From NCBI GenBank assembly GCA_000965745.1, contig CP009479.1, positions 352,001 through 416,000 of the forward strand: DNA of 64,000 nucleotides, read 5' to 3'. Position 1 is the first letter of the stretch, and each line of letters begins with the position of its first letter. This DNA is from an uncultured archaeon. Lineage in GTDB: Archaea > Thermoplasmatota > Thermoplasmata > Thermoplasmatales > Thermoplasmataceae. Under the pieces are notes generated by a model. It saw nothing but the letters and a program-made list of their open reading frames with translations. It had not been told where the DNA came from and did no database searches. Shown one piece after another: positions 43,195 through 62,231 of this stretch. The position numbers and the translations under genes are program-made.

Positions 43195-43305
43195 AGTATT
43201 ATCGGCATGTGAAAAAAGTTAAGCTTATCCTCAATTAAGTTAACCGCTAACCGTTATTCCGAGCGGGTTAACCATAAACTTATAATTCTTTGCAAACAAG
43301 CTTGA

Positions 43306-44668: not shown

Positions 44669-44753
44669 TGGTTAACTGCTAACGTAAAGTTCTAAAACCT
44701 TAGACGGTTAACAAGGTAAGGCATTTTATGCCTCAGGCAATAGAGGGAGCAGA

Positions 44754-45179: not shown

Positions 45180-45181
45180 TT

Positions 45182-45352: not shown

Positions 45353-45358
45353 TTCTGC

Positions 45359-45436
45359 TGTCACTAAACTTGTAATTTTAGTAACGCCACTAAACACTGG
45401 ATTTTAATAACATATGTGTCCCTAAATTCTATGACT
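45359..45436. promoter_or_regulatory. Candidate res site (three inverted-repeat subsites) upstream of the resolvase
   Basis: TGTCACTAAA-8-TTTAGTAACG; CGCCACTAAA-8-TTTAATAACA; TGTCCCTAAA-0-TTCTATGACT. Confidence 0.6.
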
Positions 45437-45439
45437 TAA

Positions 45440-46045
45440 ATGACGCTCGTTTTCGCCTACGTTCGAGCCAGCACCCAAGAGGAGGTCAGGCAAGGCTCAA
45501 ATGAGAGGCAGAAGGACGTAATCAGGGAGTACGTGAAATCCAAGGCCTACGAACTGGAATTCTTTGAAGACAGGGCCAAATCTGGGAAGAACACCCAGAG
45601 GCCGGACTTCGAGAGGATGCTGAAATCCCTTGATAATAAGCCCAAGGTGGTCATTGTGGCAAAGATAGACAGGTTTGCCCGCTCCTTATCGGATCTGCTG
45701 AGAATGCTTGAATATCTGGACCAGAAGGGCATAGGATTCATCAGCGTCAACGACCCAGGCATTGATACCACCACACCCAATGGAAGGCTCCTGCTGCAAA
45801 TTCTGGGCGCATTCGCTGAATTTGAGAGGAACATGATAAATTCCAGGACCAAAGCAGGAAGGGAACAGGCGATGAATCGAGGAGTTAAATTCGGCAGACC
45901 AGCACTGAAAACAAGGAATGGCAGCTTCCTGGACAGGAGGAGAGTCATTGAATTGAAGGAGAAAGGCCTGTCTGCCAGAGCCATAGCAAAGTCCATGGAA
46001 TGCTCCGTTACACCAATACTGAGAATCCTAAAGGAGGTCTACTAA
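45440..46045 (+). CDS. Serine recombinase (resolvase/invertase) with C-terminal HTH
   Basis: YVRAST, SGK..RP, KIDRFARS, AEFER, GVKFGRP. Confidence 0.94.
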   Translation: MTLVFAYVRASTQEEVRQGSNERQKDVIREYVKSKAYELEFFEDRAKSGKNTQRPDFERMLKSLDNKPKVVIVAKIDRFARSLSDLLRMLEYLDQKGIGFISVNDPGIDTTTPNGRLLLQILGAFAEFERNMINSRTKAGREQAMNRGVKFGRPALKTRNGSFLDRRRVIELKEKGLSARAIAKSMECSVTPILRILKEVY

Positions 46046-46278
46046 TTCTCAGTGAAAGAGAGAGAGTCGCCGAACGCGTGAGCGCTCTTATTATATAATA
46101 TATACCTGATACAATGAACATTACATATTAAAAAAATGGAATTTTCCTTAATTTTTAAAGCTTGAAACGAACAAAGAACAATCCACTTGTTTTCTGACAC
46201 TCTCTCTCCAAAATCAATAACGACTGTTCTGCGACACTCAATGATTCGACTCGTTCGTTACTTTTAATAATCTTACCA

Positions 46279-47391
46279 GTGAAGCATGATTGTGCAGGTG
46301 ATCCAATGGCAATGAAAGATCCCTATGCATTCTTCGACACCAAGGTTAAGCAGAGGGCAAAGGAGACAAGCAACATAAAGAATGCCATCCTCTTTGACAT
46401 GGACTACAAGCCAAACCAGATTCTAATCAGAAAGGAGCTCGACAAGGTAACAGATGACTTAGCTGATTATGTGAACCTGCACCTGCCAAGGCACATAATC
46501 ATATACGGTTCCAAGGGGTCAGGTAAGACGCTCAGCGCCTTGATTATGGCCAGGGCCCTGAAAGAGAGCAAATCTGTGCCATATTACTACATAAACGTGA
46601 GGGAGAACCCGACATCCATCAAGGCATACCGCTACCTCACGAGAGTATCAAGCCGTGGGCACGACATAGAGGAGGTCGAGAGGAGATTCGACCAGATGCT
46701 TGAGGGAAAGTCTATCGTAATACTGGATGAAGTGGACTTCCTGCAGGACTTTGACATCCTATATCACGTCACGAGGCACACCAAGGCAAATCTTATACTG
46801 CTGACCCAGAAGGTCTACTGGTACAAGGACATGAATGATGAGAGCGTCAAGAGCTCGCTTCAGCCGGACCACATAGTATTCCACGAGTACAACGCCGAAG
46901 AAATGCGAGAGATCCTGAAGATGAGGGCCGAGGAGGGCCTTAATGGATTTGACAAGGATGCCTTGGGGCTTCTCTCTGCCATGCTGGTGAGGGAATACAG
47001 GAGCGATGCAAGAATTGGAATAAAGGCCCTGGAAATTCTCGGAAGGATAAACAAATGGACTGATGAAGCTGTAAGAGCAGCACTGAGACAGGCGTATGTT
47101 GAAGTGGAAGGGGAAACCCTGAGGAACCTTGGAGACAGGGATTTAATCATTCTCGCCTCATTGATCAAGAATCAGGACACAAACAAGGCCTACGCAGAGG
47201 TGACCAATGTCAACAACTTCCTGGTAAAGGGAATGAGCAAGTCTACATTCTTCCAGAGTGTCAACTACTTGCAGAATCTTGGTCTTGTCACACTGATCAA
47301 GAAAAAGATTGGTCGATACTACACAATGGAGTCGCAAATTTTATTATCCGATGCGTCGATTGTATCTGTCGAGCTGAAAAAAAGACTTTAG
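46279..47391 (+). CDS. cdc6: Cdc6/Orc1-like replication initiator
   Basis: YKPNQILIR, YGSKGSGKT, ILDEVD, FHEYNAEEMREILKMR, DAR, C-terminal wHTH. Confidence 0.85.
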   Translation: MKHDCAGDPMAMKDPYAFFDTKVKQRAKETSNIKNAILFDMDYKPNQILIRKELDKVTDDLADYVNLHLPRHIIIYGSKGSGKTLSALIMARALKESKSVPYYYINVRENPTSIKAYRYLTRVSSRGHDIEEVERRFDQMLEGKSIVILDEVDFLQDFDILYHVTRHTKANLILLTQKVYWYKDMNDESVKSSLQPDHIVFHEYNAEEMREILKMRAEEGLNGFDKDALGLLSAMLVREYRSDARIGIKALEILGRINKWTDEAVRAALRQAYVEVEGETLRNLGDRDLIILASLIKNQDTNKAYAEVTNVNNFLVKGMSKSTFFQSVNYLQNLGLVTLIKKKIGRYYTMESQILLSDASIVSVELKKRL

Positions 47392-47405
47392 TAACGTTCA
47401 ATAAC

Positions 47406-49499
47406 ATGGTGTTTTATATGGTTGATTCTTTGATGGAAAAAGGTGACCAAACTCAAAGAGGTGGCAATGGGCAAAGGAGATCATTAATCGAGGAGTTGCC
47501 AAGAATAGTCGACAGAGGAAAGAAGGAGGCACAGAAAATTCTTGATGGGCTTTCTAAGTCCCAGAGAGTAACTCTTCAGACAAACGAATTGGTGCTGCCT
47601 ACAAAGGCCATCGGAGGGCTGACCAAGTTTACGGGGCAGACTGTAAGGACGGAAGATAACAGTGAATTTCTTAATCGACTCATATACGGTGATAATCTGT
47701 TTGCCATGCAGGCACTTTTAGCAGGCGATCCTGAAACAGGACTTCCGTCAATGAGAGGCAGGATCGACCTGATTTATATTGATCCGCCCTTTGACAGCAA
47801 GGCGGATTATAGGACAAAAATACATCTTCCTTCCGTAGACATTGAGCAAAAACCATCGGTAATAGAACAATTCGCATACTCTGATACTTGGAAAGACGGG
47901 ACAAAGTCTTATCTGGAGATGATCGCCCCCAGATTGGTTCTAATGAAAGAACTACTGAGTGAAAAGGGTTCAATCTACGTGCATATAGATTGGCATGTTG
48001 GACATTATGTAAAAGTAATAATGGACGATATCTTCCAAAAGGAAAATTTCATAAATGAGGTTGTTTGGAAAAGAACAAGTGCTCATAGCGATTCTGGTAG
48101 ATATGGAATCAATAGTGACTACATATTATTCTATACAAAAACTTCTGAAAGGATCTGGAATCAGCAATACGAACCATATTCAGAAGAATACCTTGCGAGG
48201 TTCAGAAATGTTGACCCTGATGGGCGTAAATGGCAGGACGGACCGATAACGGCTAAAGGATTACAGGGAGGTGGTTATTCCTATGAATATAAAGGGGCCT
48301 ATGGCTACTGGAGGTGTCCTAAATCAACCATGGAAAGACTTGACAAGGAGAACCGGTTGTATTTCACCAAGAATGGTGGGATTAGGATAAAGAGGTATCT
48401 GGACGAAACTCCGGGAATACCTATGCAGACCATTTGGACGGACGTTTTTGCTGTCAATTCTCAAGCTCATGAAAGGGTAGATTATGTTACCCAAAAGCCG
48501 GAATCATTGCTGGACAGAATAGTAAAAACATCATCTGATGAGGGTTCTATTATCGCAGATTTCTTTGCAGGTTCTGGAACATTAGGAGCAGTGGCAGAGA
48601 AACTTCGAAGAAAATGGATTATGTGCGATTTAGGTAGACCTGCAAGTATGATCTCTCGAAAACGTCTTATCGACCAGGATTCCGGACCATTCCTCTACCA
48701 AACTATTGGAGACTACCAGAAAGAACAGTTTGAAAGATCGCAATTCAGACGTATAGGAGACCTTGCCCATGTTGTGATCAACCTATACGGTGCGCTTCCA
48801 TTTCCGATGCAAGAAGGTACCCCCACTAATCTTGGCTACATCAAACAGAGTAAGACTTTGGTGTTTGTTGACTCTCCCACAAAAATCACTGGTTATGCTA
48901 CTCTTAAAAGGGCCCAAGAGCTCAGAGCCTCCTTCATGGGAGGATGGAGCAGAATAGTTGTTCTGGGTTGGAACTTCGAAACGGATATTGGTAAAATCAT
49001 AGACGGCATAAACGATGATAAGCTCGAAGTACTGGTGATTCCCCCAGACTTGTTGGAGAAGTTAAAACACAAGGCTGACTACGAGAAACTCATAAAAGAA
49101 GGGAGCGTAAGATTCAGTTCTTTACAATACCTTGCTGTCAGACCAGTTATCAAAAAATTAGCAGATGACGACACGGAGGAGTTGACAATTGAACTTGAGA
49201 ATTATGTTCTTCTTTCCCCAGATGCATTACCACTTGACAAGGCAGACAAGGACAAACTCGAAAAGATCATAGAAGAGGATCCTTTGAGTCTCGTTGAATA
49301 CTGGAGCATTGACCCAGAATATGATGGAGAGATGTTCAGGAGCAAATGGCAGGATTACCGGGAAAACCATGAAGAGTCCGCTAAGGTGGACCGAAAGGTA
49401 AAACTCCTTGTCCCCAAGATTAATGGAAAAAGAAAGGTCTGCGTGAAAGCAGTTGATGTATTCGGATTCGAGAGCGTGACCGTTAAAGAGGTATTTTGA
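47406..49499 (+). CDS. mod: Type III R-M methyltransferase subunit (beta-class amino-MTase)
   Basis: IYIDPPF precedes DFFAGSGT; TQKPE motif; overlaps the res start. Confidence 0.9.
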   Translation: MVFYMVDSLMEKGDQTQRGGNGQRRSLIEELPRIVDRGKKEAQKILDGLSKSQRVTLQTNELVLPTKAIGGLTKFTGQTVRTEDNSEFLNRLIYGDNLFAMQALLAGDPETGLPSMRGRIDLIYIDPPFDSKADYRTKIHLPSVDIEQKPSVIEQFAYSDTWKDGTKSYLEMIAPRLVLMKELLSEKGSIYVHIDWHVGHYVKVIMDDIFQKENFINEVVWKRTSAHSDSGRYGINSDYILFYTKTSERIWNQQYEPYSEEYLARFRNVDPDGRKWQDGPITAKGLQGGGYSYEYKGAYGYWRCPKSTMERLDKENRLYFTKNGGIRIKRYLDETPGIPMQTIWTDVFAVNSQAHERVDYVTQKPESLLDRIVKTSSDEGSIIADFFAGSGTLGAVAEKLRRKWIMCDLGRPASMISRKRLIDQDSGPFLYQTIGDYQKEQFERSQFRRIGDLAHVVINLYGALPFPMQEGTPTNLGYIKQSKTLVFVDSPTKITGYATLKRAQELRASFMGGWSRIVVLGWNFETDIGKIIDGINDDKLEVLVIPPDLLEKLKHKADYEKLIKEGSVRFSSLQYLAVRPVIKKLADDDTEELTIELENYVLLSPDALPLDKADKDKLEKIIEEDPLSLVEYWSIDPEYDGEMFRSKWQDYRENHEESAKVDRKVKLLVPKINGKRKVCVKAVDVFGFESVTVKEVF

Positions 49500-52423
49500 T
49501 GGTAAATGTCAAGTCTCCCGGAACAAGAGATGTACCGCTAAAGCTTGCGAAGAGGATTACCGAACAAGCAAACGAGTTGTGGAAATCTGGAGAATTTCTT
49601 GAGAAAGTCGCGCCAATAACTCAGGAACTGCTTAAGTTCTGGGACCCTGATGGAATATTTGCTGATGAAAGAAGCATAAACTTTCATGATGGGCAGTGGC
49701 AATCGATACTGAATGTAATCTATGTGCACGAGGTCCTGAAACTATCCAGCGTTGGTGAGCTGTATGCTCAAATTTACTCAGAACTGCTGGCGCAAATGAA
49801 CATGGCAGATCTCAAACAGGATAAATACGAACATCCAAAATATTGTGTAAAGATGGCAACAGGAACCGGTAAGACTTGGGTTATGGATGCTTTACTCATA
49901 TGGCAATACCTTAACTCAAAATACGATGAAAATGGAAGTGAGAGGTTCTCAAAGAACTTCTTGTTAGTGGCTCCTGGTATCATAGTCTATGAAAGACTCC
50001 TGGACGCTTATCTGGGAAAGCGAAGAGAGGACGGTAATAGGGACTTTGATCAGTCCGATTTCTGGAGATTTCAGAAACTCTTCATTCCACCTGTCCACAA
50101 GGATGCAGTCTTTGGCTTTATCCAGAGTTGTGTTTCTCAAAAAGAGGAAATAGGACGAAAAGTCACCGGAGAAGGGCTAATAGGAATCACAAACTGGCAT
50201 CTTTTGGCAGAGGATGAGGAAGAAGATGAACTGGAGTCTGCACTAGATAGGCCAGATATAGCAGTAAATGAACTGCTCCCCATTACTCCTGGTACTTCCC
50301 AGGGCCATTCCTTGGAGGAACTTGACAATCAGTATATGAGAGGCCGGGAACTCGACTACTTATCAAGTCTTCAGGACCTTGTCGTATTCAATGACGAAGC
50401 TCACCATCTTGGCGAGATGAAGAGGGCGGATCAGGTTGTGGAGAAGAAATGGCAGGAAGCACTGGACAAAATTGCAGAGATCAAGAAGGATCGTTTCATG
50501 CAAGTGGATTTTTCAGCAACACCGTACATTGTCACTGGTAGTGGACAAAGCAGAGTCCAGAATCATTTCCCACACATAGTGTCCAACTTCGAACTCGTGG
50601 ATGCAATAAAAGAAGGACTGGTCAAAACTGTCGCTATTGACAAGAGGAAGGAGTTCGGTTCAATTCCTCTTGAGGACCTTGAGTACAAAGCAGAGCGAGA
50701 GGGCAAACAGGTTGCGAGTCTCTCCGATGGGCAAAAACTCATGCTAAGAGCAGGTATGCAGAAATTGAACATACTTGAGGAAGAATTTACAAAACTGGAC
50801 TCGACAAAGTATCCTAAAATGCTAGTCGTCTGTGAAGATACCAAAGTGGGCCCTCTGGTTATCACATTCCTTCTGCAGGAAGGCTACTCAGAGGACGATG
50901 TAATGGAAATCCACTCCACAAGGAAAGGCGATGTGAGCGAGGCAGAGTGGAAAGTGATTGAACAAAGACTCTTCGACATAGACCGTCATAAGAAGCCAAA
51001 GGTGATTGTTTCCGTTCTAATGCTCAGGGAAGGATTTGATGTTAACAATATATGTGTTATAGTGCCACTTAGGTCCGCCTCTTCTTACGTTCTATTGGAG
51101 CAGTTAATAGGGAGAGGTCTCAGATTAATGTGGCGTGGACCAGACTACGATGATATAAGAGCAGAAAATCGTGAGAAACTTCTAGTAAAGAAGGAAGAGC
51201 CAGATAGCTATATTGACATTCTAAGTGTAGTAGAGCACCCTAACTTCATCGAATATTATGAAAGAGTCCTTGCCGGAATGGTGGGCAAGGTCAGTGAAGA
51301 ACCAACAAAGAATAGAGTCGTTGGCGACCTTATCAAGGTAGGTCTCAAACCTAACTACAGAGACTATGACTTGTTCTGGATCATCATATTGCAGGACAAA
51401 GAGGAAGAACTCGCGGTGCCTGACCTATCCATAAATAAACTTGAGCCATTCCAGATGAGACTTGAGGATTTGCGTTCACTGGTCGGGCGAAAAGGTGATA
51501 CGTTTTACAGCGAGGAATTGACAGTAAAGACAACTTTTGGCGAATATACTGTTACAGCAGACATTTTCACTGCAAAAAGCTACAATTCATTTATCCAGAA
51601 AGTGGTGAACGCAGTGTCAGTTATCCATGTCAATGCAAGAGGCAGGAAATCAAGGGATTTTCCAGTCATGCAGGTTAATTCTGCCCTTATTGCAAAGCTC
51701 ACGGATGAATACATCAGACACAAACTATTCGGGCAGGAGTTTGATCCATTAGTGGATAATAACTGGCGCGTACTTCTTGTGGCACAGCAGAACTTGATCA
51801 AGCACATTGTAAGTAACATTGCACAGGCTGTTTATGATTCCATGAAGAATCTCAAAGTAAACGAGGCCAAGATCGTGAAAAAGTACTTCTCCGAGGTGCC
51901 TGAAATTCGAATAAGGGAAACATATGCCTTGAGAGCTGCAAAGAACATTTACGAGAAGATAGCCTATCCTTCACATGCTGGTGGGTTTGAAAAGGACTTT
52001 ATCGAATTCATAGATTCTGATTCCAAAGTCAAGGCATTTGTGAAGATAAACGAATACTACAACGACTTTGCAAATATCATTTATGTCAGGGACGACGGTC
52101 TTCTTGCTCACTACTACCCGGACTTCATGATAAGGGCTTGTGATCACATCTATCTTGTAGAAACCAAATCTGAAAGAGACATGAGCAACCAGAATGTCAA
52201 AAACAAGAGGATCGCAGCCATTGACTGGGTGGATAAAATAAATGAGCTCCCTCCAGAGGAAAGAATGAATTGTGATTGGAGCTACGTGCTCCTTAGCCAG
52301 AACACTTTCGAAATGATGAAAAAGCAGGGCGCGAATACCTGTGAGATACTGGAATACACCAAACTCACCAAGGCAAAGGTGAGAGGTACACTAGGAGACT
52401 ACATGGGATTCAAGGACTATTGA
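49496..52423 (+). CDS. res: Type III R-M restriction subunit (SF2 helicase + nuclease)
   Basis: MATGTGKT, DEAH, FSATP, LREGFD, QLIGRGLR; C-terminal YYPDF...VETK. Confidence 0.9.
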   Translation: MMVNVKSPGTRDVPLKLAKRITEQANELWKSGEFLEKVAPITQELLKFWDPDGIFADERSINFHDGQWQSILNVIYVHEVLKLSSVGELYAQIYSELLAQMNMADLKQDKYEHPKYCVKMATGTGKTWVMDALLIWQYLNSKYDENGSERFSKNFLLVAPGIIVYERLLDAYLGKRREDGNRDFDQSDFWRFQKLFIPPVHKDAVFGFIQSCVSQKEEIGRKVTGEGLIGITNWHLLAEDEEEDELESALDRPDIAVNELLPITPGTSQGHSLEELDNQYMRGRELDYLSSLQDLVVFNDEAHHLGEMKRADQVVEKKWQEALDKIAEIKKDRFMQVDFSATPYIVTGSGQSRVQNHFPHIVSNFELVDAIKEGLVKTVAIDKRKEFGSIPLEDLEYKAEREGKQVASLSDGQKLMLRAGMQKLNILEEEFTKLDSTKYPKMLVVCEDTKVGPLVITFLLQEGYSEDDVMEIHSTRKGDVSEAEWKVIEQRLFDIDRHKKPKVIVSVLMLREGFDVNNICVIVPLRSASSYVLLEQLIGRGLRLMWRGPDYDDIRAENREKLLVKKEEPDSYIDILSVVEHPNFIEYYERVLAGMVGKVSEEPTKNRVVGDLIKVGLKPNYRDYDLFWIIILQDKEEELAVPDLSINKLEPFQMRLEDLRSLVGRKGDTFYSEELTVKTTFGEYTVTADIFTAKSYNSFIQKVVNAVSVIHVNARGRKSRDFPVMQVNSALIAKLTDEYIRHKLFGQEFDPLVDNNWRVLLVAQQNLIKHIVSNIAQAVYDSMKNLKVNEAKIVKKYFSEVPEIRIRETYALRAAKNIYEKIAYPSHAGGFEKDFIEFIDSDSKVKAFVKINEYYNDFANIIYVRDDGLLAHYYPDFMIRACDHIYLVETKSERDMSNQNVKNKRIAAIDWVDKINELPPEERMNCDWSYVLLSQNTFEMMKKQGANTCEILEYTKLTKAKVRGTLGDYMGFKDY

Positions 52424-52448
52424 CTCTTCTTACACTGACAACTTGTAC

Positions 52449-52613
52449 CTAAGCAGTACTCTTTGGAATGGTGTAGGAATTCTTCTCACCCACATAGGTA
52501 TTGAAATTATTACCACACTCTGAGCATTTGTATCTTGAAACCTCATATACATTAAACGCCCATTGTTTGAGAGGAGGATTCTTATTTTCCATGTTACAGA
52601 CAGGGCACTTCAT
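52449..52613 (-). CDS. Unannotated 54-aa zinc-ribbon protein
   Basis: Manual translation MKCPVCNMENKNPPLKQWAFNVYEVSRYKCSECGNNFNTYVGEKNSYTIPKSTA*. Confidence 0.7.
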   Translation of the reverse strand: MKCPVCNMENKNPPLKQWAFNVYEVSRYKCSECGNNFNTYVGEKNSYTIPKSTA

Positions 52614-52639
52614 AACGAAATAGTAGAACTAACGCCGAC

Positions 52640-52822
52640 TTAAATTTGTTCCTGTAAAAACTCCCTTGCACTTCTGACCCCTTTCTTTATATCATCTTCA
52701 CTTTTTCTTAATTGCTCCATCACACAATGGCTTTGAAGAGTTTCAATGGTAGCAAGAAGGCTATCCAGGTAGGATTTTGGTATGCTTATCAACCTGTCGT
52801 TGTGTTTTGCCATCAAGAACAA
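52640..52822 (-). CDS. Orphan antitoxin-like protein (Phd/YefM/RelB C-terminal-like)
   Basis: YLDSLLATIETL...MEQLRKSEDDIKKG pattern. Confidence 0.55.
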   Translation of the reverse strand: MFLMAKHNDRLISIPKSYLDSLLATIETLQSHCVMEQLRKSEDDIKKGVRSAREFLQEQI

Positions 52823-53472
52823 TAATACATATTCAGCTTTTAGTATCTATTGGTAAGACTCCGGCTCAAATTCACCCCTAACCCCTCTTTGAGCCTCCGC
52901 CGATTACTATGTGCCCTTCGCTCGCCTGCACGCCGAGCACAGGACCCCATGCTTCGACTCCAATCAAAATTCACCCCTAGCCCCTCTTTTGATTTACGTC
53001 TCGCACTCTTCTTCGAAGAGCCCCTCATTCGCCTTGCTCATTCAGGGTGGTGTCCTGTGCTCGCCGCTCGTGGTGTATGTGTGGTGTTAAACACCTTCGC
53101 TTCGCTTGGTGTTCCACACCACCCACCGCTAACGCTTACACCACTCGGTCTTGCTACGCAAGACTTCCGGCTCGCTTCGGGCACATTATTCTCTCCTGCG
53201 GAGTGCAATTTTAGGGGAACAGGGGGAGGGGAATTTTTGACCGCACAATCTCGCTGCGCTCGGTGCGGGATAATATTAGGGGTTCTCGGTCCGTGCTCAC
53301 TTCAACGATTCACAGATGGATAATACAAAGCACTGCGACCAACCCTTTTGGGAAAAGGTAGACGAAAACAAAAATTATTAGAAAATAATGTAATAACCAC
53401 GTGACGAGGTTTGTATAACAAACCTGACAAACAGGTTTTATACAAGAAACCAATTAAGAGGTAGGTGAAACA

Positions 53473-54585
53473 ATGAGACTTAGAGCACTTGAAATTAGTC
53501 AGAAGGATACCCAGTTCTACCTCTGCTCATTTAGAGCAAAAGATATCGTTGGTATCTATAAGGTAGATACATGGAGAACGGATAACAGGAATGGCTACCA
53601 GAGAGATGTTGTAATCAGTAGGGCAAGAGGGTTTGGAAGATTCATAAGAGATGGCGGTGTCTCGCCTTCTTCCATACTGCTAAATGTGAGAGAAAGTGGA
53701 GTTATATCTTACAAAGATGGTTATTTACAGATCCCAGACGAGACTCCATTATGGATCGTAGATGGTCAGCACCGTGTCAAAGGGCTCAAAGAAATGATTG
53801 AAAATGATGGTCACATTGACATGGGAGAATTTGAATTCCCCGCAGTAATAATGAATTACCAGAATCCTTATGAGGAGGCTAAGCAATTCGTCATCATTAA
53901 CAGAACCGCAAAGGGTGTACGGTCTGATTTAGGTGAAAGATTCCTTCAAAGGGCTATTGAAGAACAAGGTAAAATGAGTGTCATGGCCAGACAAGGGCTC
54001 CCTTCATCGATTCTTACCGGAGTAGAATGGAAAACAAGGGCTGTCAATATAACCGACAGGATTAGCACCCTGGATACTTCTATATGGAAAGACCTGATTA
54101 TATTTCCGAACGAGCCTAAAGGCGATAAACTGGTCAGTCAAAAAGCATTTTCAGACTCACTGAGGCCAATTCTTAATGACCGACTATTTGAGAGACGTAC
54201 AGACGATGAAATAACCCAGATTCTCATAAACTACTGGAATGCAGTCAAGGAAATTTGGCCCAGATGCTTCAGCGATCCAAGCTCTTACGTTCTTCAGAAG
54301 TACGCAGGGGTTTTTGCCGTTCACAAGTTGCTTCCAAAGGCAGCTCAGTTCTGCCCTACTAAAGGCGATAAAATTGTTCTTACTAAAGATTCTTTCCTGG
54401 TAATTTTTGAAAGACTTTCTCAGAAGGACTTGGGGGACGGCAAGAAGTTTGACGAGGAAATTTGGGCAAACAGAGGCAGATATGGAATGCTTGGTACAAC
54501 AATGAAGTCCGTTTCCCTAATTACAGACGACCTGTCAGATGCGCTTGACAATTCTTTAGGATCGGGACAGGATATAGAACTGTAA
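53473..54585 (+). CDS. DGQHR-domain (DndB-like, ParB/Srx-related) protein
   Basis: GYQR, PSSILLN, IVDGQHR, QFVIIN; AGGTGA RBS upstream. Confidence 0.9.
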   Translation: MRLRALEISQKDTQFYLCSFRAKDIVGIYKVDTWRTDNRNGYQRDVVISRARGFGRFIRDGGVSPSSILLNVRESGVISYKDGYLQIPDETPLWIVDGQHRVKGLKEMIENDGHIDMGEFEFPAVIMNYQNPYEEAKQFVIINRTAKGVRSDLGERFLQRAIEEQGKMSVMARQGLPSSILTGVEWKTRAVNITDRISTLDTSIWKDLIIFPNEPKGDKLVSQKAFSDSLRPILNDRLFERRTDDEITQILINYWNAVKEIWPRCFSDPSSYVLQKYAGVFAVHKLLPKAAQFCPTKGDKIVLTKDSFLVIFERLSQKDLGDGKKFDEEIWANRGRYGMLGTTMKSVSLITDDLSDALDNSLGSGQDIEL

Positions 54586-54602
54586 TTACCCCCTATTTCT
54601 AT

Positions 54603-55832
54603 TTGGAGGAATGTATGTCTTGTGATTTTATTTCTGAATTTCAAGTAACTGGCGACAAAGTAGTAAATCCAAGAGAAGGAATAACTTATGAATTCAAGGA
54701 GAATTTTAACTGGGGAGGCAAAGAGAAATATGCCAAGATCATGGCTTCTTTTGCTAATTCCACAGGTGGTTACCTCCTATTTGGCGTAAAAGATGACGGG
54801 CATATCGAGGGTCTCTCTAACAACAACTTTGAAGACCGCGACCCGGCAAATATCAGTTCATTCTTGAATTCCTTGTTCACTCCTGCAATACGGTGGGGCA
54901 AGTTCGTATGTGAACTTGGAGGATACAAGATCGGAGTCATCAAAGTCGAAGAGGCAATAGAAAAACCAATTATATCATATAGGAACGGCCAAGAGGTGAA
55001 GGAAGGAGACATTTTCTTTAGGTATGCAGCTCAAAGTGAAAGAATTAAGTTTTCTGAACTGAAGTCGATCATTGAAATTGGAAGAAGGGTGTACGGAGAG
55101 AAGCTCCTCAAGAGTCTAAGAATGATTGTCGAGAAAGGTCCTGAATCTGTAAAACTGCTTGACCTGAACGAGTTGAAAGATGCAAAGAAAGATGAGATTT
55201 ACTTCCTAGATGATAACTTTCCCGATTCGGAAGTAAGGGTACACAGAGCCTCAGAAAGCGAACAAACAAAGGGAGTTGGCATAAAAATAGTCAATGTTGA
55301 AGGTAAGGCGATGCCAATTACAATTAGGGAATTTGCAAACATAAGTTCAGAACTTATTGTGCACGCCTTTCTTGATCAAGAGCTCCCTGCAAAATTTGAT
55401 CCAATGGGCTTTGTGGAACGTCTCGCTTTCGAAACTAGCGGTTTGGTGCCTATGTATTTTTATATAAAAGAGGCCAACTTAACAAGAGATGAGGCAGTTG
55501 AGCTTATTAAAAAAACAAAGTCTACCACTAGAGGAAGAACTACTATCCTAAAACGATTGAGTGGTAAGGAATACGACTTCAGATCTTCAACATACAGCAA
55601 CACACTTGATGACTTAATTAATGGTTCCTTGAGCATAAGTGATCTGCAAACCTCAAATGTCAGGACCGTCTTGCAATCTATACGGTCTTGTTCAAAAGGC
55701 TTCTTGGTGCAGAACTGGAATAGGCTGAAGGACATAATGCAATACCTATATGATGAGTATTATATGAACCCGAAATTCAGGTCTGAGGTTAGATGGGCAA
55801 TGTGTTTCATAGACTTGACCTTATTTTCATAG
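54603..55832 (+). CDS. Schlafen/AlbA_2-domain protein with uncharacterised C-terminal region
   Basis: EGITYEFKE, SFANSTGGYLLFGVKDDG. Confidence 0.85.
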   Translation: MEECMSCDFISEFQVTGDKVVNPREGITYEFKENFNWGGKEKYAKIMASFANSTGGYLLFGVKDDGHIEGLSNNNFEDRDPANISSFLNSLFTPAIRWGKFVCELGGYKIGVIKVEEAIEKPIISYRNGQEVKEGDIFFRYAAQSERIKFSELKSIIEIGRRVYGEKLLKSLRMIVEKGPESVKLLDLNELKDAKKDEIYFLDDNFPDSEVRVHRASESEQTKGVGIKIVNVEGKAMPITIREFANISSELIVHAFLDQELPAKFDPMGFVERLAFETSGLVPMYFYIKEANLTRDEAVELIKKTKSTTRGRTTILKRLSGKEYDFRSSTYSNTLDDLINGSLSISDLQTSNVRTVLQSIRSCSKGFLVQNWNRLKDIMQYLYDEYYMNPKFRSEVRWAMCFIDLTLFS

Positions 55833-55839
55833 TCCGCGT

Positions 55840-55880
55840 AAGTATTCGCTTAATATTTTAATCAAATCCCGACCGGTCCA
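55840..55880 (+). repeat. attR copy 1 (arm + tRNA 3' core)
   Basis: AAGTATTCGCTTAATATTTTAA-TCAAATCCCGACCGGTCCA. Confidence 0.93.
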
Positions 55881-55888
55881 TTCGAACC

Positions 55889-56281
55889 CTACCTGAACAG
55901 CTTGAGACCCTTGTCAGTAAAAACTTCAAAGTGATTATATAAGGTATAGAGTGAGCATCCGTTATTAATTGCTATTGACGCAACAATAGCGTCCATTCTT
56001 GGAACTGCCCCTCCTTTTCTTTCCGCGTCTAATTCTAAAACGGCAGATAGTTCACTGTCATTTTTACTGTATTCCAGAGTTGGAATCTGCAGGACTAGAC
56101 GAGAATCTCTGGAGTATTTCTCTATACCGTACAGCACCTCATGCATGTTCACTGAACTTGTGCAGTATTCTTCCCCGCTTTCGATGATTTTAAGCATGAG
56201 TTCCTGGCCTTTGTATGAGTCCTTATCCAGCACTTCGATGATGATATCCGTGTCCAGAAGAATCAATTTCTTTTCTCCCAT
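55889..56281 (-). CDS. vapC: VapC PIN-domain toxin
   Basis: LLDTDIII, E, MDAIVASIA; overlaps the antitoxin gene. Confidence 0.9.
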   Translation of the reverse strand: MGEKKLILLDTDIIIEVLDKDSYKGQELMLKIIESGEEYCTSSVNMHEVLYGIEKYSRDSRLVLQIPTLEYSKNDSELSAVLELDAERKGGAVPRMDAIVASIAINNGCSLYTLYNHFEVFTDKGLKLFR

Positions 56282-56475
56282 CGTTTCTTTTCTATATCCA
56301 TGAGGAGCTCCTTCTTATTTTCAAATTCCACGCTTCCCCGTAGAGACAAAAGTAGATCCTTCTTGCTCTGTGATTTAATAAGCCTGTCCAGAAGTTCACT
56401 GAAACTTTCATTCTCCTTCTTGAATCCCATCAGTTCATCATATACAGATTTCTTAATGGTGATAGTTTTAGGCAT
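56263..56475 (-). CDS. vapB: VapB antitoxin (DUF217-like)
   Basis: MPKTITIKKSVYDEL..KKENESFSELLDRL. Confidence 0.88.
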   Translation of the reverse strand: MPKTITIKKSVYDELMGFKKENESFSELLDRLIKSQSKKDLLLSLRGSVEFENKKELLMDIEKKRWEKRN

Positions 56476-56550
56476 AACATATGTTTATGTTTAACACTAT
56501 TTATACCTTCATACATCTACCAGTAAAGGCGCTGGAACGTGTCTTCTATA

Positions 56551-56591
56551 AAGTATTCGCTTAATATTTTAATCAAATCCCGACCAGTCCA
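56551..56591 (+). repeat. attR copy 2
   Basis: Matches 55840-55880 at 40 of 41 positions (GACCAGTCCA variant). Confidence 0.9.
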
Positions 56592-56696
56592 CTTCAAGTT
56601 TACCGGGATATGCGAACAACTTTCAAGATTTACCCCCACCCTTGATTGTCTGCAGAAGCTCCATGCGGGATCACTTCAGCACCGGATCCAGTTCAA

Positions 56697-58151
56697 TCAA
56701 TTTTCTGGTTTCTTCAATTTCTTGAAAAGCTCATGTTCTATATCCGAAAGATTCATGAAGATTACATTTCCAGCCAGCCCATGCATGGCTCCCTTGAATC
56801 CACTTTTTGAAAATACAGCATATGTATAATTTTTCCCGGGGTATTGCTTTCTCAGTGATTCTGATTTTGTCTTTAAAGCTTCAACCACATTTATCGGTAC
56901 GGGACTGTTTGTCCACTTGCATTCTGCGAAAAACAATTCTCCACGTTTTTCGGAGTGTGCGACGATATCGATCTCCTCCACACCCCTGCCCTTTTTTCCG
57001 GACCCGTTTCTGCCCCACCACCTGGAAACAGTGTCAAACGATCTGCCTAATATCCCTTCCAATATTAGTTCCTTCATGAGGTTCTCAAACTGCTCACCCG
57101 CAAATGTGGGAAAATCTGTCTTTATGCTCTCAAGTACGCCTCCGTTGCGGGAACTCTCGATTTCACTCTTATGCGGCAATACATACCTGAACCAGAACTT
57201 CAGGTACTGGTCGGATATCCAGTACAATTTTCTCTTGAATTTCTCATGAGCCCCGAATGGCTTTTCAGGTATTACAAGGCCAAGTGACATGAGGACATCG
57301 AGATACTTGGATACCATACTCTTGTCCAGCCCGGAATAGTAACATATCTCTCCCAATGTATGATTTCCGTAAGAAATAGATCTGAGAATCAGCATGTAGT
57401 TCCTCGGTTCCCTGAATTCAGTTCTAAGGAGAAATTCTGCCTCCTCATAGAGTGCAGAACCTTTTGAAAGCAGGTTCTTTGACACATTTCCCCAAAATCC
57501 AACAGAAGGATCAAGTTTCAGAAGATATTCTGGTATGCCGCCAAATACAAAGTATGTATTGCATAAATCTTCAAATCCATAATCCACAAATTCAGCCAAA
57601 TATCTGAACTTCAAAGGTTTCAGCTGCAGTTGGCCGGTTCTTCTGCCGTAAAGAGGACTTCTACAGGAAAGTACTTCATTTTCCATTATGCTGATTGATG
57701 AGCCTGAAAGAATCAACATTACATTCATCTGCCTCAGAATCGTGTCGTATATTTTTTGAAACACCGATGAGATTGCCCTGTTAGCCTCTATTAGATATGG
57801 AAATTCATCAATGGCAATTATGACCTTTGATTTGCTTGCTTTCGCACGAAATGAGCTACTTGAAGCCAGAACAGAGAAAAGAGAGTGCCAATCATCAAAA
57901 CTTGCCTTGATAATACTGTCATCTTCCAGAAACCTTGATACACTCGCCTTGAAGTTGTTTATGTTTTCTTTGTCTCCTTCTGCTGTTGCAAGAAAATAGA
58001 CTCCCCTGTTGCCAATGAACCTACTGATTAATTCAGTCTTTCCAACCCTTCTTCTCCCATAAAGGATGAACAGCGAAGCTTCCTTGGATGAGTAAGCATT
58101 CTCAAGGATTTCTAGTTCCTCAACTCTGTTGACAAACTTTTGTTGATACAT
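56697..58151 (-). CDS. Archaeal ATPase (ATPase_2) with wHTH and DUF234 PD-(D/E)XK nuclease-like domain
   Basis: FVNRVEE, YGRRRVGKT, IDEFPY, SPLYGRRT, EIDIV...AECKW. Confidence 0.9.
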   Translation of the reverse strand: MYQQKFVNRVEELEILENAYSSKEASLFILYGRRRVGKTELISRFIGNRGVYFLATAEGDKENINNFKASVSRFLEDDSIIKASFDDWHSLFSVLASSSSFRAKASKSKVIIAIDEFPYLIEANRAISSVFQKIYDTILRQMNVMLILSGSSISIMENEVLSCRSPLYGRRTGQLQLKPLKFRYLAEFVDYGFEDLCNTYFVFGGIPEYLLKLDPSVGFWGNVSKNLLSKGSALYEEAEFLLRTEFREPRNYMLILRSISYGNHTLGEICYYSGLDKSMVSKYLDVLMSLGLVIPEKPFGAHEKFKRKLYWISDQYLKFWFRYVLPHKSEIESSRNGGVLESIKTDFPTFAGEQFENLMKELILEGILGRSFDTVSRWWGRNGSGKKGRGVEEIDIVAHSEKRGELFFAECKWTNSPVPINVVEALKTKSESLRKQYPGKNYTYAVFSKSGFKGAMHGLAGNVIFMNLSDIEHELFKKLKKPEN

Positions 58152-58263
58152 AAGTATTATACTTTATTCACAACAAGTACATTAACCTGTCCGGACTAAA
58201 CGTATTAAACTGAATAACCTTGGAGTCTTCCTTTAAAACAATAATAATTTATCAGGATGCCGT

Positions 58264-58506
58264 TCATTCAAGCTCGAGTCTTCTCTTCAGCTCTTCGAGT
58301 GAGATAAGTCTACCCTCCACTACATCCAAGGAACTCTCGAGGAAAGATGCTTTGAATTCATCAGTGTATCTACCTTCATCGTCACCCTCAGGGATCAGAC
58401 TCAATAATGCCCTTATCAATTTGTCATAAGAAATGCCACCGGCTTTCTTTAGTGCTTCCAATCTCAATTTAGTGGATTCTTTTACGTGGATTGTGGAATT
58501 ATTCAT
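58264..58506 (-). CDS. Orphan RHH/antitoxin-like protein
   Basis: STIHVKESTKLRLEALK..SYDKLIRALL; DVVEGRLISLEELK. Confidence 0.7.
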   Translation of the reverse strand: MNNSTIHVKESTKLRLEALKKAGGISYDKLIRALLSLIPEGDDEGRYTDEFKASFLESSLDVVEGRLISLEELKRRLELE

Positions 58507-58594
58507 TCTTTCCTATGATTAAGGAGAGCAACAATTTAAATGGTATCTTCAAGCGGAATGGGCGACGCGAGCATGAACTCATTTGTTAATTCCG

Positions 58595-58633
58595 GTATTC
58601 ACTAAAAACACTAATCGAATCCCGGCCGGTCAA
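58595..58633 (+). repeat. attR copy 3 (degenerate)
   Basis: GTATTC-12 nt-AATCGAATCCCGGCCGGTCAA; same arm spacing as copies 1 and 2. Confidence 0.7.
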
Positions 58634-58871: not shown

Positions 58872-61800
58872 GTGCTAAGTAATCTCAATTCAAGAGTGAA
58901 CAACATGAGTGATTCAGGAGACAATAAAAAAACAACCGGTGACCCACAAATAGGGAGCATCCGGGCAAACACTAAAACTTCAACCAAGTGGATTGCAGTT
59001 GTAATAGCCCTTCTCGCAATAATAGGAGTCCTGGGTGGGGTGCTTGCAACACACTATTCCGCGGCCCAGACAGCCGGAGGGATCAACGCAATACTTTCAA
59101 GCAAGATTGGAGCAATAGATCAGAATGGAACCTATACGACGAGCATTACAGCGTCAAGCACTTTCAAGAACATGACAGTCTACTTCGGTGATGGTTCCAG
59201 CCAGCTCTTAAATTATAACGGGAACAATACTGTGAAAATCAGCCATAGGTATACTAATCCCGGTGAATACTATATTTTTGCCGATATCAACTATGGCTCA
59301 ACCAGCAGTTATTACATAGAGCCCGTCAAGGTTACACCACAGTACCCGAACACAAAATATGCCTACAGATCCATGTCTGTGGATCCCCTGTCTTCATCAC
59401 CGCAGTTGGTAAACAACCTGTCCAACATATTCAGCCCTGGTTCGCACATGACGCTCAACTTCGTCCCCCCTGTCGGAGGAGGCAGCGACCAGATAGTGCA
59501 GCAGACGCTGTCTATGTCCAACGGAACAGGGATGGTTTCGAGCCAGAACATACCTTACTTCTACAACCTGAACAATAAGGAATATGAGATTCCAGTTCAG
59601 ACGGAGGCTTATGGAGGTCTGCAGTCCGGCCTTTATGTTCTTGAGATCAACACCACCACAGCTCCGGTAAACTTCACACAGATGATAACTGCCAAGGTCT
59701 CAAGCACATCGATCATGAATTTCACGGCCAATCAGCAGTACATTTCTGCCTCTGCAACGTCGCTTGTCCACAACCTTTCAGCGTTGCAGTTTGACAGGAC
59801 AAACATAACCTACAGTGCCAATACGACAGTTAATTACACAAACCCTGCAGCTCTGTTTCTCTGGGATTCAGCGAATATCACCCTGAATAACGGATCAGTT
59901 ACTTACGGGACAAAAACGGTAACGTCAGGAACGTTTAAGGTGAATGCATCCACAGAGCTCTCCCTCTCCAGGCAGACTAACGTTACGTTCAACAACATGG
60001 CATCTGCAGAATTGAATGATACCAGCACTGTTTCAGTTTTCACCGGTGCAGCATCAGGCATAACAACGGACAATGCCACCCAGATAAAATTCCTTGCCAA
60101 TGCGCATAACGTTTCAGTGACATCAACATTGACCGGGGCCAGCACTGTTCCACTCAACAACGGAGAATACAACCGTTCCGCAACAGTCACAACATCCTAT
60201 TTCATAGATTTCCCGGTTGTCGGACAGGTACAGCAGCAGACTGGGGCATCCACAAGCTTCACCAACGCCGAGCCAAACCTGCCAGGCGGATATACGACGC
60301 TTGATCCGGCAACAGCATATTACCAGGCAGACACAGAAATACTTTCCAGCGTCCTGATGACGCTTGTAACGTATAACGGGTCTTCAACAAGCAATTTTGA
60401 GCCGCTCGTTGCAAAACAGCTGCCTTCTTTCAAGAACGGCGAAATAAACAGCAACTACACGAACAAGACTGTAACCACTCCATGGGGTTCAAAATATCAG
60501 TACAACGTCACCCCGGGCGAGAATTACACCTTTGTTGTAAACCAGAAGATCAAGTTCGCAAACGGGAATCCGGTTACAGCGTGGGATATCATGTACTCCC
60601 TGACAAGGACACTTCTCTTCGCGGGTGGATCTCCGGGAACTTCCGGATGGATCCTCGGGCAGTACATCCTTCCAGGGCATTACTTCAAGACAAACACTTT
60701 CTACAACATTACCACTAACATGACCGTAGACAACAACACAAACTCCATCACATTCCACTTCCAACAGCCAATGAACCCGAGTTTCGCGTTCCAGATCTTT
60801 TCGTCGGTCGGTACCTGGATCGAGGATTCCGGCTGGTACATAAAGCATGGGGCGGGGATAACATGGAGCAAACAGGGATTCCAGGACTACAAGAAATATG
60901 GGGATCTCAGCAACTACAACTCCTATGTCCAGAACCACGTGATGCCTGACGGCCCCTACAGAGTCTCATATATTGTGCCTGGGACTCAGGTTACACTTGC
61001 AGCAAACCCGGATTTCGTTTCACCCGGACCATGGTATCCTGCAGCGAAGATCAATACGGTCAACATACTATACCCCCACACCAATCAGCAAGCTTACCTG
61101 CTTCTGAAATCGGGGCAGGCTCAGAACGCATTTCTTCCGACGACATACTGGAACCAGACCAGGGCACTTGCAAACAGCGGAACTATCAGTGTGTATGGGT
61201 TCCCCACTCTGTCAATCAATTTCTACAACTTCAACCTGAAAATCAATGCTACGATACTGCATTCCCTGGACCAGTCGTCAAATGTGCCGTCATACTTCTT
61301 CGTCAACCCGAACGTCAGGAAGGCCTTCGCATACGCATTCAACTATTCCCTTTACTTCGGAAGGCAGGTTGGAAATGAGGTTTACAATACAACCTTCTTC
61401 TCGCCCTATGTAGGAATGCTTCCGTCTGGAATGCTCTACAACCAGACTGCACAGGGCCTGGCGGACGCGGGAAGCGGTGTTGTCAATGCTAACGGCCACG
61501 AGCCTTTCCAGCTTCAGCAGGCAAGAAAATACCTGAACTACTTCTTCAATGGCACAACAAGCTCATCCAACCACGACACAGCAGGCACAATGAACGTGAA
61601 ATTCCAGGGAGGAAAGGTTCTGTATAACGGCAACCCGCTTGTGATTCCAATAATAGTTCCTGCCAACGATCCCACAAGCACCGCAGCAGTAACAACATGG
61701 GGTGCGGACCTGAAGCAGATTCTACCCGGCGCATCTTTCCCTATTGTCCCGCTGCCGCTGACCCAGCTGTTCGGGGCATACTCGGTGCAGGGGCAGAACC

Positions 61801-62231
61801 CGATGCCAGTAAGCTGGGGCGCCTGGAACCCTGACTACCCCTTCCCCACAGACTATCTGCTGCCAATGGCAATGCCAATAAACGGATCCTTCTACATGGG
61901 AGCTGCAGATTACACGCCATACAATGTGGAAAACACCAGTCACAATGCCTACAACCTGTCTGAAGCAAGCTTCATGAACCAGGAAATCAGTGCATTGAAC
62001 AATGCGACAAGCAATGTGACAAATCAGACACTTTCGGAGTACTGGTTCCATGTTACGAACGGAATGGTCGTAAACAGCACAAATGAGGTATACGCCGGAC
62101 AGACACACAGATACCTAACCATCAGCGCAGGCATAAACGGAAACGACATTACAGCGTACCAGCAGAACGTGATGTTCGGAGGCAAAGGCATATTGCTCTA
62201 CAACCTTATCGGGTACAACACAACAGCGTGA
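58872..62231 (+). CDS. ABC transporter substrate-binding protein (family 5) with N-terminal TM anchor and PKD-like domain
   Basis: VYFGDGS...HRYTNPGEY (PKD); TLDPA, KFANGNPVTAWD, GPY, VRKAFAYAFNY, WNPDYP. Confidence 0.88.
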   Translation: MLSNLNSRVNNMSDSGDNKKTTGDPQIGSIRANTKTSTKWIAVVIALLAIIGVLGGVLATHYSAAQTAGGINAILSSKIGAIDQNGTYTTSITASSTFKNMTVYFGDGSSQLLNYNGNNTVKISHRYTNPGEYYIFADINYGSTSSYYIEPVKVTPQYPNTKYAYRSMSVDPLSSSPQLVNNLSNIFSPGSHMTLNFVPPVGGGSDQIVQQTLSMSNGTGMVSSQNIPYFYNLNNKEYEIPVQTEAYGGLQSGLYVLEINTTTAPVNFTQMITAKVSSTSIMNFTANQQYISASATSLVHNLSALQFDRTNITYSANTTVNYTNPAALFLWDSANITLNNGSVTYGTKTVTSGTFKVNASTELSLSRQTNVTFNNMASAELNDTSTVSVFTGAASGITTDNATQIKFLANAHNVSVTSTLTGASTVPLNNGEYNRSATVTTSYFIDFPVVGQVQQQTGASTSFTNAEPNLPGGYTTLDPATAYYQADTEILSSVLMTLVTYNGSSTSNFEPLVAKQLPSFKNGEINSNYTNKTVTTPWGSKYQYNVTPGENYTFVVNQKIKFANGNPVTAWDIMYSLTRTLLFAGGSPGTSGWILGQYILPGHYFKTNTFYNITTNMTVDNNTNSITFHFQQPMNPSFAFQIFSSVGTWIEDSGWYIKHGAGITWSKQGFQDYKKYGDLSNYNSYVQNHVMPDGPYRVSYIVPGTQVTLAANPDFVSPGPWYPAAKINTVNILYPHTNQQAYLLLKSGQAQNAFLPTTYWNQTRALANSGTISVYGFPTLSINFYNFNLKINATILHSLDQSSNVPSYFFVNPNVRKAFAYAFNYSLYFGRQVGNEVYNTTFFSPYVGMLPSGMLYNQTAQGLADAGSGVVNANGHEPFQLQQARKYLNYFFNGTTSSSNHDTAGTMNVKFQGGKVLYNGNPLVIPIIVPANDPTSTAAVTTWGADLKQILPGASFPIVPLPLTQLFGAYSVQGQNPMPVSWGAWNPDYPFPTDYLLPMAMPINGSFYMGAADYTPYNVENTSHNAYNLSEASFMNQEISALNNATSNVTNQTLSEYWFHVTNGMVVNSTNEVYAGQTHRYLTISAGINGNDITAYQQNVMFGGKGILLYNLIGYNTTA

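Follow-up and report, generated by a model that had tools for sequence, protein, structure and literature searches.

What process leaves several copies of the end of one tRNA gene standing one behind another on an archaeal chromosome, each closing a short segment of toxin-antitoxin (TA) or defence-like genes? Such a series occurs in a 64,000-nucleotide stretch (the window) of contig CP009479.1, from an uncultured member of the Thermoplasmataceae. A reading of this DNA made from the sequence only had proposed that successive integrations left their right-end cargo behind, building a chronologically ordered, integron-like stack. The explanation that we consider probable is site-specific accretion and exchange, at tRNA-Ala, of att-bounded cassettes that lack an integrase.

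The att core, TCAAATCCCGACCGGTCCA, is the last 19 nt of tRNA-Ala(CGC) (38345-38363, + strand). As the sequence-only reading held, it recurs farther along the + strand, at 55862-55880 (no mismatches), 56573-56591 (one) and 58615-58633 (three), against a chance expectation from dinucleotide shuffles of 0.00, and the element-side arm GTATTC-N12-AA precedes all three distal cores at constant spacing. The sites are real and non-random. The 22-nt P arm of attR1 is exactly that of attR2, whereas the copy at attR3 is degenerate; the repeated unit is thus 41 bp (P arm plus 19-nt core), with start-to-start spacings of 711 and 2042 bp. The features of the locus are as follows.

38292-38363, + strand: tRNA-Ala(CGC), attL side (ARAGORN; core match)
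38364-38384, + strand: P' arm, ending CGAATAC, directly 5' of the integrase gene (inverted repeats I2/I5)
38364-55839, + strand: integrated plasmid-like element, 17.5 kb (Pfam, PHROGs, PADLOC)
38413-39702, + strand: divergent tyrosine integrase, 429 aa (NCBIfam, catalytic residues, fold search)
55840-55880, + strand: attR1, P arm and exact core, right end of the 17.5-kb element (profile score 51.7 bits)
55881-56550, - strand: body of cassette 1, vapC-vapB operon (Pfam; core-to-core homology in other genomes)
56551-56591, + strand: attR2, P arm and one-mismatch core (46.7 bits)
56592-58592, - strand: body of cassette 2, ATPase and RHH genes (Pfam, PADLOC)
58593-58633, + strand: attR3, degenerate P arm and three-mismatch core, outer boundary of the stack (32.0 bits)
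58872-62231, + strand: gene for a 1119-aa solute-binding protein (SBP), chromosomal flank outside the stack (Pfam SBP_bac_5; 74% identical in G028)

The P' arm is the P arm inverted (85-86% complementary) and is also found after every tRNA that bears an intact element; attR1, attR2 and attR3 have no P' arm. A profile scan of the window returned no additional att relics, and where the core passes into the cassette nothing past 'TT' is conserved. Because its core has three mismatches and its arm is degenerate, attR3 may be dead as a recombination site. The three sites are best read as the right-hand junctions of a stack made by site-specific recombination at tRNA-Ala.

The genes of the resident element include those for a wHTH protein, a 624-aa ATPase, ParA, a serine resolvase, an AAA protein, a DndB/DpdB-like protein, a Schlafen/AlbA_2 protein and a type III R-M system (Mod 47406-49499, Res 49496-52423), and its integrase gene adjoins the tRNA-side junction. 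By sequence the integrase has no Pfam Phage_integrase match at E<0.01 and finds only noise in the PDB; its NCBIfam matches are to XerA (2e-10, below the cut-off) and XerC (1.7e-5). Residues R152, K196, Y270xxR273, H300 and Y308 are invariant across 16 homologues, down to 41% identity. A Foldseek search with the AF2 model (pLDDT 77) returned XerA, XerH, IntI, Cre and lambda Int at 1e-7 to 1e-3, with IntI (2a3v) ranking among XerA, XerH and Cre and showing no preference. With its R-K-H/Y-R-H/W-Y set and Cre/Xer fold, the protein belongs to the tyrosine recombinase superfamily. Its family occurs in 68 of 101 Thermoplasmataceae genomes, with 86-96% identity between genera, and integrative plasmid-like elements of ~16-21 kb that target the 3' end of tRNA-Ala(CGC) or tRNA-Ala(TGC) are widespread in the Thermoplasmataceae.

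The segments between the sites, first described as ~0.7 kb of vapBC and ~2 kb with an ATPase-nuclease and an orphan antitoxin, hold a vapBC pair and an ATPase gene with an RHH gene, and the intervals contain neither a recombinase gene nor a P' arm, as had also been claimed. In cassette 1 the genes for VapB (56263-56475, - strand; Pfam PF02697, 4.3e-14, above cut-off) and VapC/PIN (55889-56281, - strand; Pfam PIN PF01850, 8.6e-8, above cut-off) overlap by 19 nt, the antitoxin gene preceding the toxin gene, and the pair is predicted to be a VapBC type II TA system. Its conserved palindromic operator/promoter region occupies 56476-56550, and the vapC stop lies only 8 nt past the core. Cassette 2 encodes a 484-aa ATPase_2+wHTH+DUF234 protein (56697-58151, - strand) and an 80-aa RHH protein (58264-58506, - strand). 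The ATPase matches the PADLOC candidate defence family PDC-S27 over its full length (4.9e-53, residues 5-443), which makes it a candidate PDC-S27 member with a putative defence function; no homologue of cassette 2 was present among 62 fetched cassettes. Although all genes of the window's cassettes are on the minus strand, as the sequence-only reading stressed, this does not hold generally: cassette genes of a sister array are on the + strand, and cassettes occur in both gene orientations. The congener G028 also has an att unit at the position corresponding to attR3, ~350 bp before the SBP gene that flanks the stack here.

That sister array is in the same genome, at tRNA-Ala(TGC), where an element whose integrase is 95% identical is followed by a parallel array with a degenerate fourth att site. 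Across the family, the arm-plus-core unit is found in 63 of the 101 genomes and 17 of 20 genera, at no fewer than 181 sites (the reversed-pattern control gave 0), in genomes that are related to one another and many of which are fragmented MAGs with contigs broken by the arrays. The largest arrays have ~10 sites, and the median unit length is 1.77 kb (n=58). Among 147 ORFs in 47 short cassettes we count 16 PIN, 11 VapB, 8 DUF7557, 7 ParE and 2 Fic genes, plus R-M genes; the entire 2.23-Mb genome that contains the window has only 9 PIN loci. Comparison of the tRNA-Ala locus among relatives, which had been put forward as a check, revealed variable cassette number and an order that is not the same in different arrays, with boundaries at att units, and lends support to a stack built by successive integrations at a tRNA hotspot.

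The 711-bp vapBC cassette recurs in 35 of the 101 genomes and 14 of the 20 genera at 76-89% identity. Its neighbours differ between genomes, and in the congener G047 it directly abuts tRNA-Ala(TGC). Its left end is 1-16 nt past a core. In five genomes the homology runs from core to core, with the operator conserved, and ends at the cores. Compared with G058 this cassette is 87% identical from end to end (711 versus 710 bp), and the sister array has a 1965-bp cassette that matches its counterpart in G015 over the whole length at 86.6% identity, whereas the chromosomal flank (5.3 kb) reaches only 68-79% identity within the genus and cannot be aligned to either genome. By these alignments the cassettes are far more alike between genera than chromosomal DNA is. 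Closer relatives reveal differences of whole blocks. On the downstream side of one att unit, genomes G031 and G050 share 8.3 kb at 99% identity, and upstream of that unit G050 lacks ~29 kb (6-7 units) that is present in G031; a stretch of four cassettes is 99.6-100% identical in content and spacing in the two genomes and is therefore stable on that timescale. These comparisons support the view that cassettes or blocks have moved from one array, tRNA-Ala gene or genus to another. Behind the resident element, the integrase-less cassettes are discrete units with exact core-to-core boundaries and their own promoters.

Under the accretion and exchange that we favour, new DNA would enter mainly at the tRNA and push older units outward. 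Recombination of the tRNA-side site with any distal P-arm-plus-core site would excise the element alone or together with cassettes, which could thereby be dropped, picked up or moved as blocks, as in CIME accretion and cis-mobilisation. We propose that addiction and defence help cassettes to be retained, and that this is why TA and defence genes are the commonest cargo. We infer that the exchanges are carried out by the integrase rather than by homologous recombination, and attR2 and attR3 of the window are presumably still substrates. Counting against this explanation, the origin of a cassette left boundary that has no P' arm lies outside its account.

Could the distal sites instead be inert scars, left when whole elements integrated in tandem and lost their integrase-proximal parts, with the likeness between genomes due to shared ancestry of element right ends? 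We regard this as unlikely, though several observations fit it. Besides the degeneracy of attR3, att sites overall become poorer the farther they lie from the tRNA (p ~1e-4; p = 0.03 with the first site left out), a few genomes have N-terminal fragments of the integrase after an att unit, several cassette homologies (that of the ParE module, for example) are anchored at the right end only, and the four-cassette stretch is fixed between G031 and G050. The fall in quality upholds the earlier claim that divergence rises with distance from the tRNA as a trend and not as a rule: decay is monotonic in only 3 of 10 arrays, several being saw-toothed in a way that suggests block insertion. A chronologically ordered stack is consequently a statistical tendency, and strict chronological order is ruled out. 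What inert scars, and with them the proposal that right-end cargo was left behind by decay, do not explain is the loss of the P' arm, which lies within 21 nt of the core, at ~99% of internal sites. Complete P-core-P' junctions number only 2 in the 101 genomes, against the 181 or more arm-plus-core sites, and random decay is therefore disfavoured. Nor does decay account for a vapBC left boundary that is constant in 14 genera, at varied array positions and at both tRNA-Ala genes. The greater similarity of cassettes than of chromosomal DNA between genera likewise speaks against scars, as does the fact that two genomes 99% identical nearby differ by several units (29 kb) with an edge at an att site. 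P-core-P' junctions do exist in nature: two acid-mine-drainage metagenome contigs carry the attP junction that had been predicted, with the integrase gene starting after it. Both are short and end just upstream of the arm, compatible with a free circle or a tandem, accompanied or not by cassettes. Viral contigs gave 0 matches to the attP pattern, and one scan of metagenome contigs gave 0 matches to empty-site junctions (tRNA core to post-attR1 or post-attR2 flank).

It is also conceivable, if more improbable still, that accretion is real and that the reshuffling is due to host homologous recombination (RadA-type) between near-identical 41-bp repeats. The repeats are direct and often within two mismatches of the core consensus, and the resulting deletions and block swaps would look identical. 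However, a 41-bp repeat offers little length for efficient homologous recombination, an integrating vehicle is needed to carry DNA from genus to genus and from one tRNA gene to the other, and the unit at which exchanges fall matches the attP half of the integrase itself. That attR2 arose as an assembly artefact or a recent tandem duplication, as the identical arms of attR1 and attR2 might suggest, we judge to have almost no chance of being correct. Only 41 nt are repeated, with cores one base apart, and the 670 bp between the two sites are a unique, intact vapBC operon. An assembly duplication is refuted, since the two copies differ, the contig is single and closed, and in other genomes too the operon stands between these two att units, the same architecture being present in many. 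A bolder version of site-specific exchange, which we hold only tentatively and think doubtful, is that the cassettes are themselves the mobile units, with the 41-bp P-arm-plus-core unit as their sole requirement in cis and the integrases of resident elements taking up, excising and rearranging single cassettes in trans at tRNA-Ala. If true, archaea would have in these arrays a counterpart of integrons, anchored at a tRNA and built on duplex att sites, and Thermoplasmataceae genera would share a pool of TA and defence genes.

Among described systems, the closest resemblance is to the CIMEs of Streptococcus thermophilus (ICESt1/ICESt3), for which decay, accretion and transfer of whole composites have all been described (PMC5704250). 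As there, segments that bear att sites and lack an integrase stand in tandem with an element that encodes one, the insertion point being a target gene's 3' end, and the composite could in principle excise by alternative att pairs. The cassettes have no integrase or transfer genes of their own and lie between two att sites that belong to a related element with an integrase, the left site being without the cassette's own arm. Unlike CIMEs, they are in an archaeal host, have no conjugation module, are much smaller (0.7-3 kb), number up to ~10 per array and carry mostly TA modules; their left arm is absent almost without exception, and single cassettes recur in 14 genera. Tandem integrated elements at one tRNA gene have been noted for archaea and bacteria (PMC6563490, PMC8371274), and here too tyrosine-recombinase elements re-use one site, with tRNA 3' ends repeated and the intact tRNA at one end. 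Those tandems consist of a few whole elements, whereas most units here are single-operon and without a recombinase, and the internal P-core-P' junctions that are the hallmark of whole-element tandems are rare.

Integrons have been reported in Archaea (PMC9668308). Like integrons and TA-stabilised chromosomal super-integrons, the arrays consist of ordered short cassettes that each end in a recombination site, beside a gene for a tyrosine recombinase; the newer units tend to lie at the proximal end, and TA cassettes are abundant. The attC sites of integrons are imperfect palindromes that are recombined as folded single strands. The sites studied here are instead duplex direct repeats, made of a tRNA 3' end and an element arm, with no folding (-1 to -4 kcal/mol for the att units, z -1.2 to +0.7). 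There is no attC, attI or Pc/common promoter and no IntI at a fixed platform; the recombinase gene belongs to a mobile element, and by sequence the enzyme matches XerA best, not IntI. While integron cassettes are promoterless and co-oriented, these have their own promoters or a conserved operator and lie in both orientations. Integron-like accretion, as first suggested, thus stands only as a functional analogy, and the system is best read as CIME-like.

'Defence islands' with vapBC and R-M genes near tRNAs and integrases have been noted in Cuniculiplasma (PMC5155288), and vapBC/R-M-rich genomic islands associated with tRNAs and integrases have been noted in acidophilic archaea (PMC12302457); both sets, predicted with IslandViewer (version 3 and 4), are from the organism family considered here. 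The passages that term searches found in the two papers describe neither an att-bounded cassette structure nor a shared att unit, and the word 'tandem' is absent from PMC12302457. Accretion at tRNA genes was already known, and what our analysis adds is its cassette-scale, family-wide occurrence in archaea: dozens of single-operon TA and defence cassettes, with one conserved 41-bp site each, stand up to ~ten deep behind two tRNA-Ala genes. The near-total absence of P' at internal sites points to a site-specific step not yet described. If the integrases act on these sites, acidophilic archaea would have a simple route by which to trade defence and addiction modules, and the 'defence islands' noted in accounts of these genomes would have a mechanism.

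We find that the only tRNA gene in the window, tRNA-Ala(CGC) at 38292-38363, shares its last 19 nt (the core) with three distal sites, where the chance expectation is 0.00 copies (dinucleotide-preserving shuffles). The sites and the genes between them are as follows:

55862, same strand as the tRNA: attR1, exact core copy
Interval 1: VapC/PIN and VapB genes
56573, same strand as the tRNA: attR2, core copy with 1 mismatch
Interval 2: genes for an ATPase_2+DUF234 protein and a small RHH protein
58615, same strand as the tRNA: attR3, core copy with 3 mismatches

The 22 nt of non-tRNA sequence to the left of each distal core is also repeated (the P arm, starting GTATTC), identical at attR1 and attR2 and degenerate at attR3, and an inverted copy of this arm (P', ending CGAATAC) lies immediately 3' of tRNA-Ala(CGC), followed by a 429-aa open reading frame. 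The tRNA-side junction, attL, reads tRNA-core-P', and each distal site reads P-core; P' was absent after the core at attR1, attR2 and attR3 alike, and scanning the window with a profile from 47 such sites found no further att relics. The sequence-only reading had described these sites, their arm and the contents of the intervals accurately.

The 429-aa protein is, judging from its sequence and a predicted structure, a divergent tyrosine recombinase whose C terminus is extended by a region of ~120 aa, because it matches archaeal XerA (NCBIfam, 2e-10, far below the cut-off) and XerC, because R152, K196, Y270xxR273, H300 and Y308 are invariant in 16 homologues (down to 41% identity), and because its predicted fold (pLDDT 77) resembles XerA, XerH, IntI, Cre and lambda Int; a Pfam integrase match was not found. 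The 17.5 kb from attL to attR1 looks like an integrated plasmid carrying defence cargo; its genes include those for ParA, AAA ATPases, a Schlafen/AlbA_2 protein, a DndB/DpdB-like protein and a type III R-M pair. In addition to the tyrosine integrase it has a serine resolvase gene (45440-46045; Pfam Resolvase, 1.5e-44), and a serine resolvase is also encoded by a sister element in the same genome. We also note a perfect 99-bp tandem duplication (42419-42616; 2 copies, 100% identical) within the element's 624-aa ATPase gene, which adds 33 in-frame residues.

Related loci are spread over the Thermoplasmataceae sensu lato (Acidiplasma, Cuniculiplasma, Thermogymnomonas, and E- and I-plasma MAGs). 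Of 101 sampled genomes, 68 have the integrase, which often shows 86-96% identity between genera, and 63 (17 of 20 genera) have the arm+core pattern, at 181 sites or more; a reversed control pattern gave no matches in the 101 genomes. Among 16 arrays retrieved for comparison, which have up to about 10 sites each, conservation is confined exactly to the 41-43-nt att unit; the flanking sequences share nothing but 'TT' after the core. Array units have a median length of 1.77 kb (n = 58), 21 being 1.3 kb or shorter.

All-against-all comparison shows that the cassettes between consecutive sites are separate units which different arrays have in common. Over its whole length, the 711-bp vapBC cassette of the window has 87% identity to a 710-bp cassette in another genus (G058), and it has ~80% identity to cassettes of four further genomes (G015, G072, G033 and G073), and in a five-way alignment homology runs from core to next core, with unrelated DNA outside. 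This cassette is carried by 35 of 101 genomes, spread over 14 of 20 genera, with 76-89% identity and in every case with its left end 1-16 nt after a core, whereas 5.3 kb of chromosomal flank has no nucleotide match in G058 or G015; we conclude that the cassettes have moved horizontally as units. In the congener G047, tRNA-Ala(TGC) itself directly adjoins the vapC end, and the cassette is 83% identical versus 68-71% for the chromosomal flanks. A palindrome, CATAACATATGTTTATGTTT (56476-56520), lies upstream of vapB, is shared by the four full copies of the cassette that were compared and is likely the autoregulatory operator, so that the cassette would carry its own expression signals. Site counts and cassette order vary between arrays, a comparison that the sequence-only reading had proposed as a check.

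The window's genome is closed (2.23 Mb) and carries the sister element at tRNA-Ala(TGC) (G000:C1:602393-632325; L007, L008), its integrase 95% identical to the window's, followed by three clear P-arm+core sites and a degenerate fourth. A 1965-bp cassette there is 86.6% identical end to end to a 1963-bp cassette of G015, in which it shares one array with vapBC; in the window's genome the two are at separate tRNA-Ala genes. The sister cassettes encode a wHTH protein with a 248-aa protein and a VapB-like/ParE pair, and since these genes are on the plus strand, the minus-strand orientation remarked on in the window is no rule. TPR and Fic genes lie past the third site. The genome's third tRNA-Ala gene, tRNA-Ala(GGC) (1511165-1511236), has a core differing by 2 nt and lies ~8 kb from a third integrase paralogue (42% identity; G000:C1:1502423-1503709). 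Two loci elsewhere (L107, G016:C11; L106, G074:C77) each hold two complete tRNA-Ala(TGC) copies; the first precedes cassettes, and the second, 2.5-4.7 kb on, precedes P' and an intact element in G016 and a P'-less cassette in G074. The same non-P' sequence, probably a different repeated element on the same core, follows a tRNA-Ala gene in each of two congeners, the CGC gene in one and the TGC gene in the other:

L083 (G047:C155), 3301-3524: tRNA-Ala with ttcgaattgttttctggg...; contig ends 205 nt later
L089 (G009:C23), 2642-2865: tRNA-Ala with ttcgaattgttttctggg...; contig ends 205 nt later

It had been proposed that successive integrations left a chronologically ordered stack. The window's 0-1-3 mismatches match a wider trend, in that the att profile score drops the further a site ranks from the tRNA (p about 1e-4 by permutation within arrays; p = 0.03 without the first site), but only 3 of 10 arrays with at least three sites are monotonic, making distance an unreliable clock; several are saw-toothed, which fits insertion of pre-assembled blocks. 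Genomes G031 and G050 are 99% identical across 8.3 kb beginning at an att unit, while ~29 kb (6-7 units) between that unit and G031's element is missing from G050 (98% complete), which has the att unit of its own element there instead. Seven independent integrate-and-decay cycles within so brief a time are unlikely, and the simpler reading is a multi-unit block gained or lost by recombination at att units. A second array is the same in both genomes (952, 3197, 856 and 1618 bp), so arrays can be stable too. Tandem integration of whole elements should produce P-core-P' junctions, and only 2 of these occur in the 101 genomes versus at least 181 P-core sites. Because P' lies 21 nt or less from the core, random deletions would often leave it intact, and decay alone does not account for its near-absence at internal sites. 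The core must have been joined straight to internal DNA by some site-specific step; candidates are secondary sites used within an element and the integration of circles that lack P'. Two acid-mine-drainage metagenome contigs (L112, ACXJ01005769; L113, ACXJ01007508) do carry the predicted attP, with P-core-P' leading into the start of a gene for a closely related integrase, which supports the arm assignment; these junctions may come from excised circles or from tandems, between which contigs of this length do not distinguish. A scan of metagenome contigs for empty-site junctions (tRNA core with post-attR1 or post-attR2 flank) found none. Activity of attR2 and attR3 at the present day is inferred, as is the enzyme behind the cassette exchanges, putatively the integrase.

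Among 147 ORFs (at least 65 aa) from 47 short cassettes in 13 arrays, matches include PIN (16), VapB (11), DUF7557 of the RHH family (8), ParE (7) and Fic (2), others being R-M enzymes or Schlafen-type helicases; in the whole 2.23-Mb genome, PIN loci number only 9. In PADLOC, the 484-aa ATPase of interval 2 hits the candidate defence family PDC-S27 (4.9e-53). Addiction and defence plausibly explain why cassettes persist. Passages on Cuniculiplasma (PMC5155288) and other acidophiles (PMC12302457) report TA/R-M 'defence islands' near tRNAs, as IslandViewer predictions, and the matching passages do not describe the att structure; tandem integration at a single site is noted in reviews of archaeal elements (PMC6563490, PMC8371274). 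True integrons are reported from Archaea (PMC9668308) and are distinct from the tRNA-Ala stack, which is not an integron: its sites are unfolded duplex repeats, attI and Pc are lacking, its cassettes have their own promoters and both orientations, and its recombinase is carried on a mobile element. Accretion at tRNA-Ala is supported and extended by the comparative data, and we regard the tRNA-Ala stacks as a new, cassette-scale archaeal form of an already known accretion-type process.
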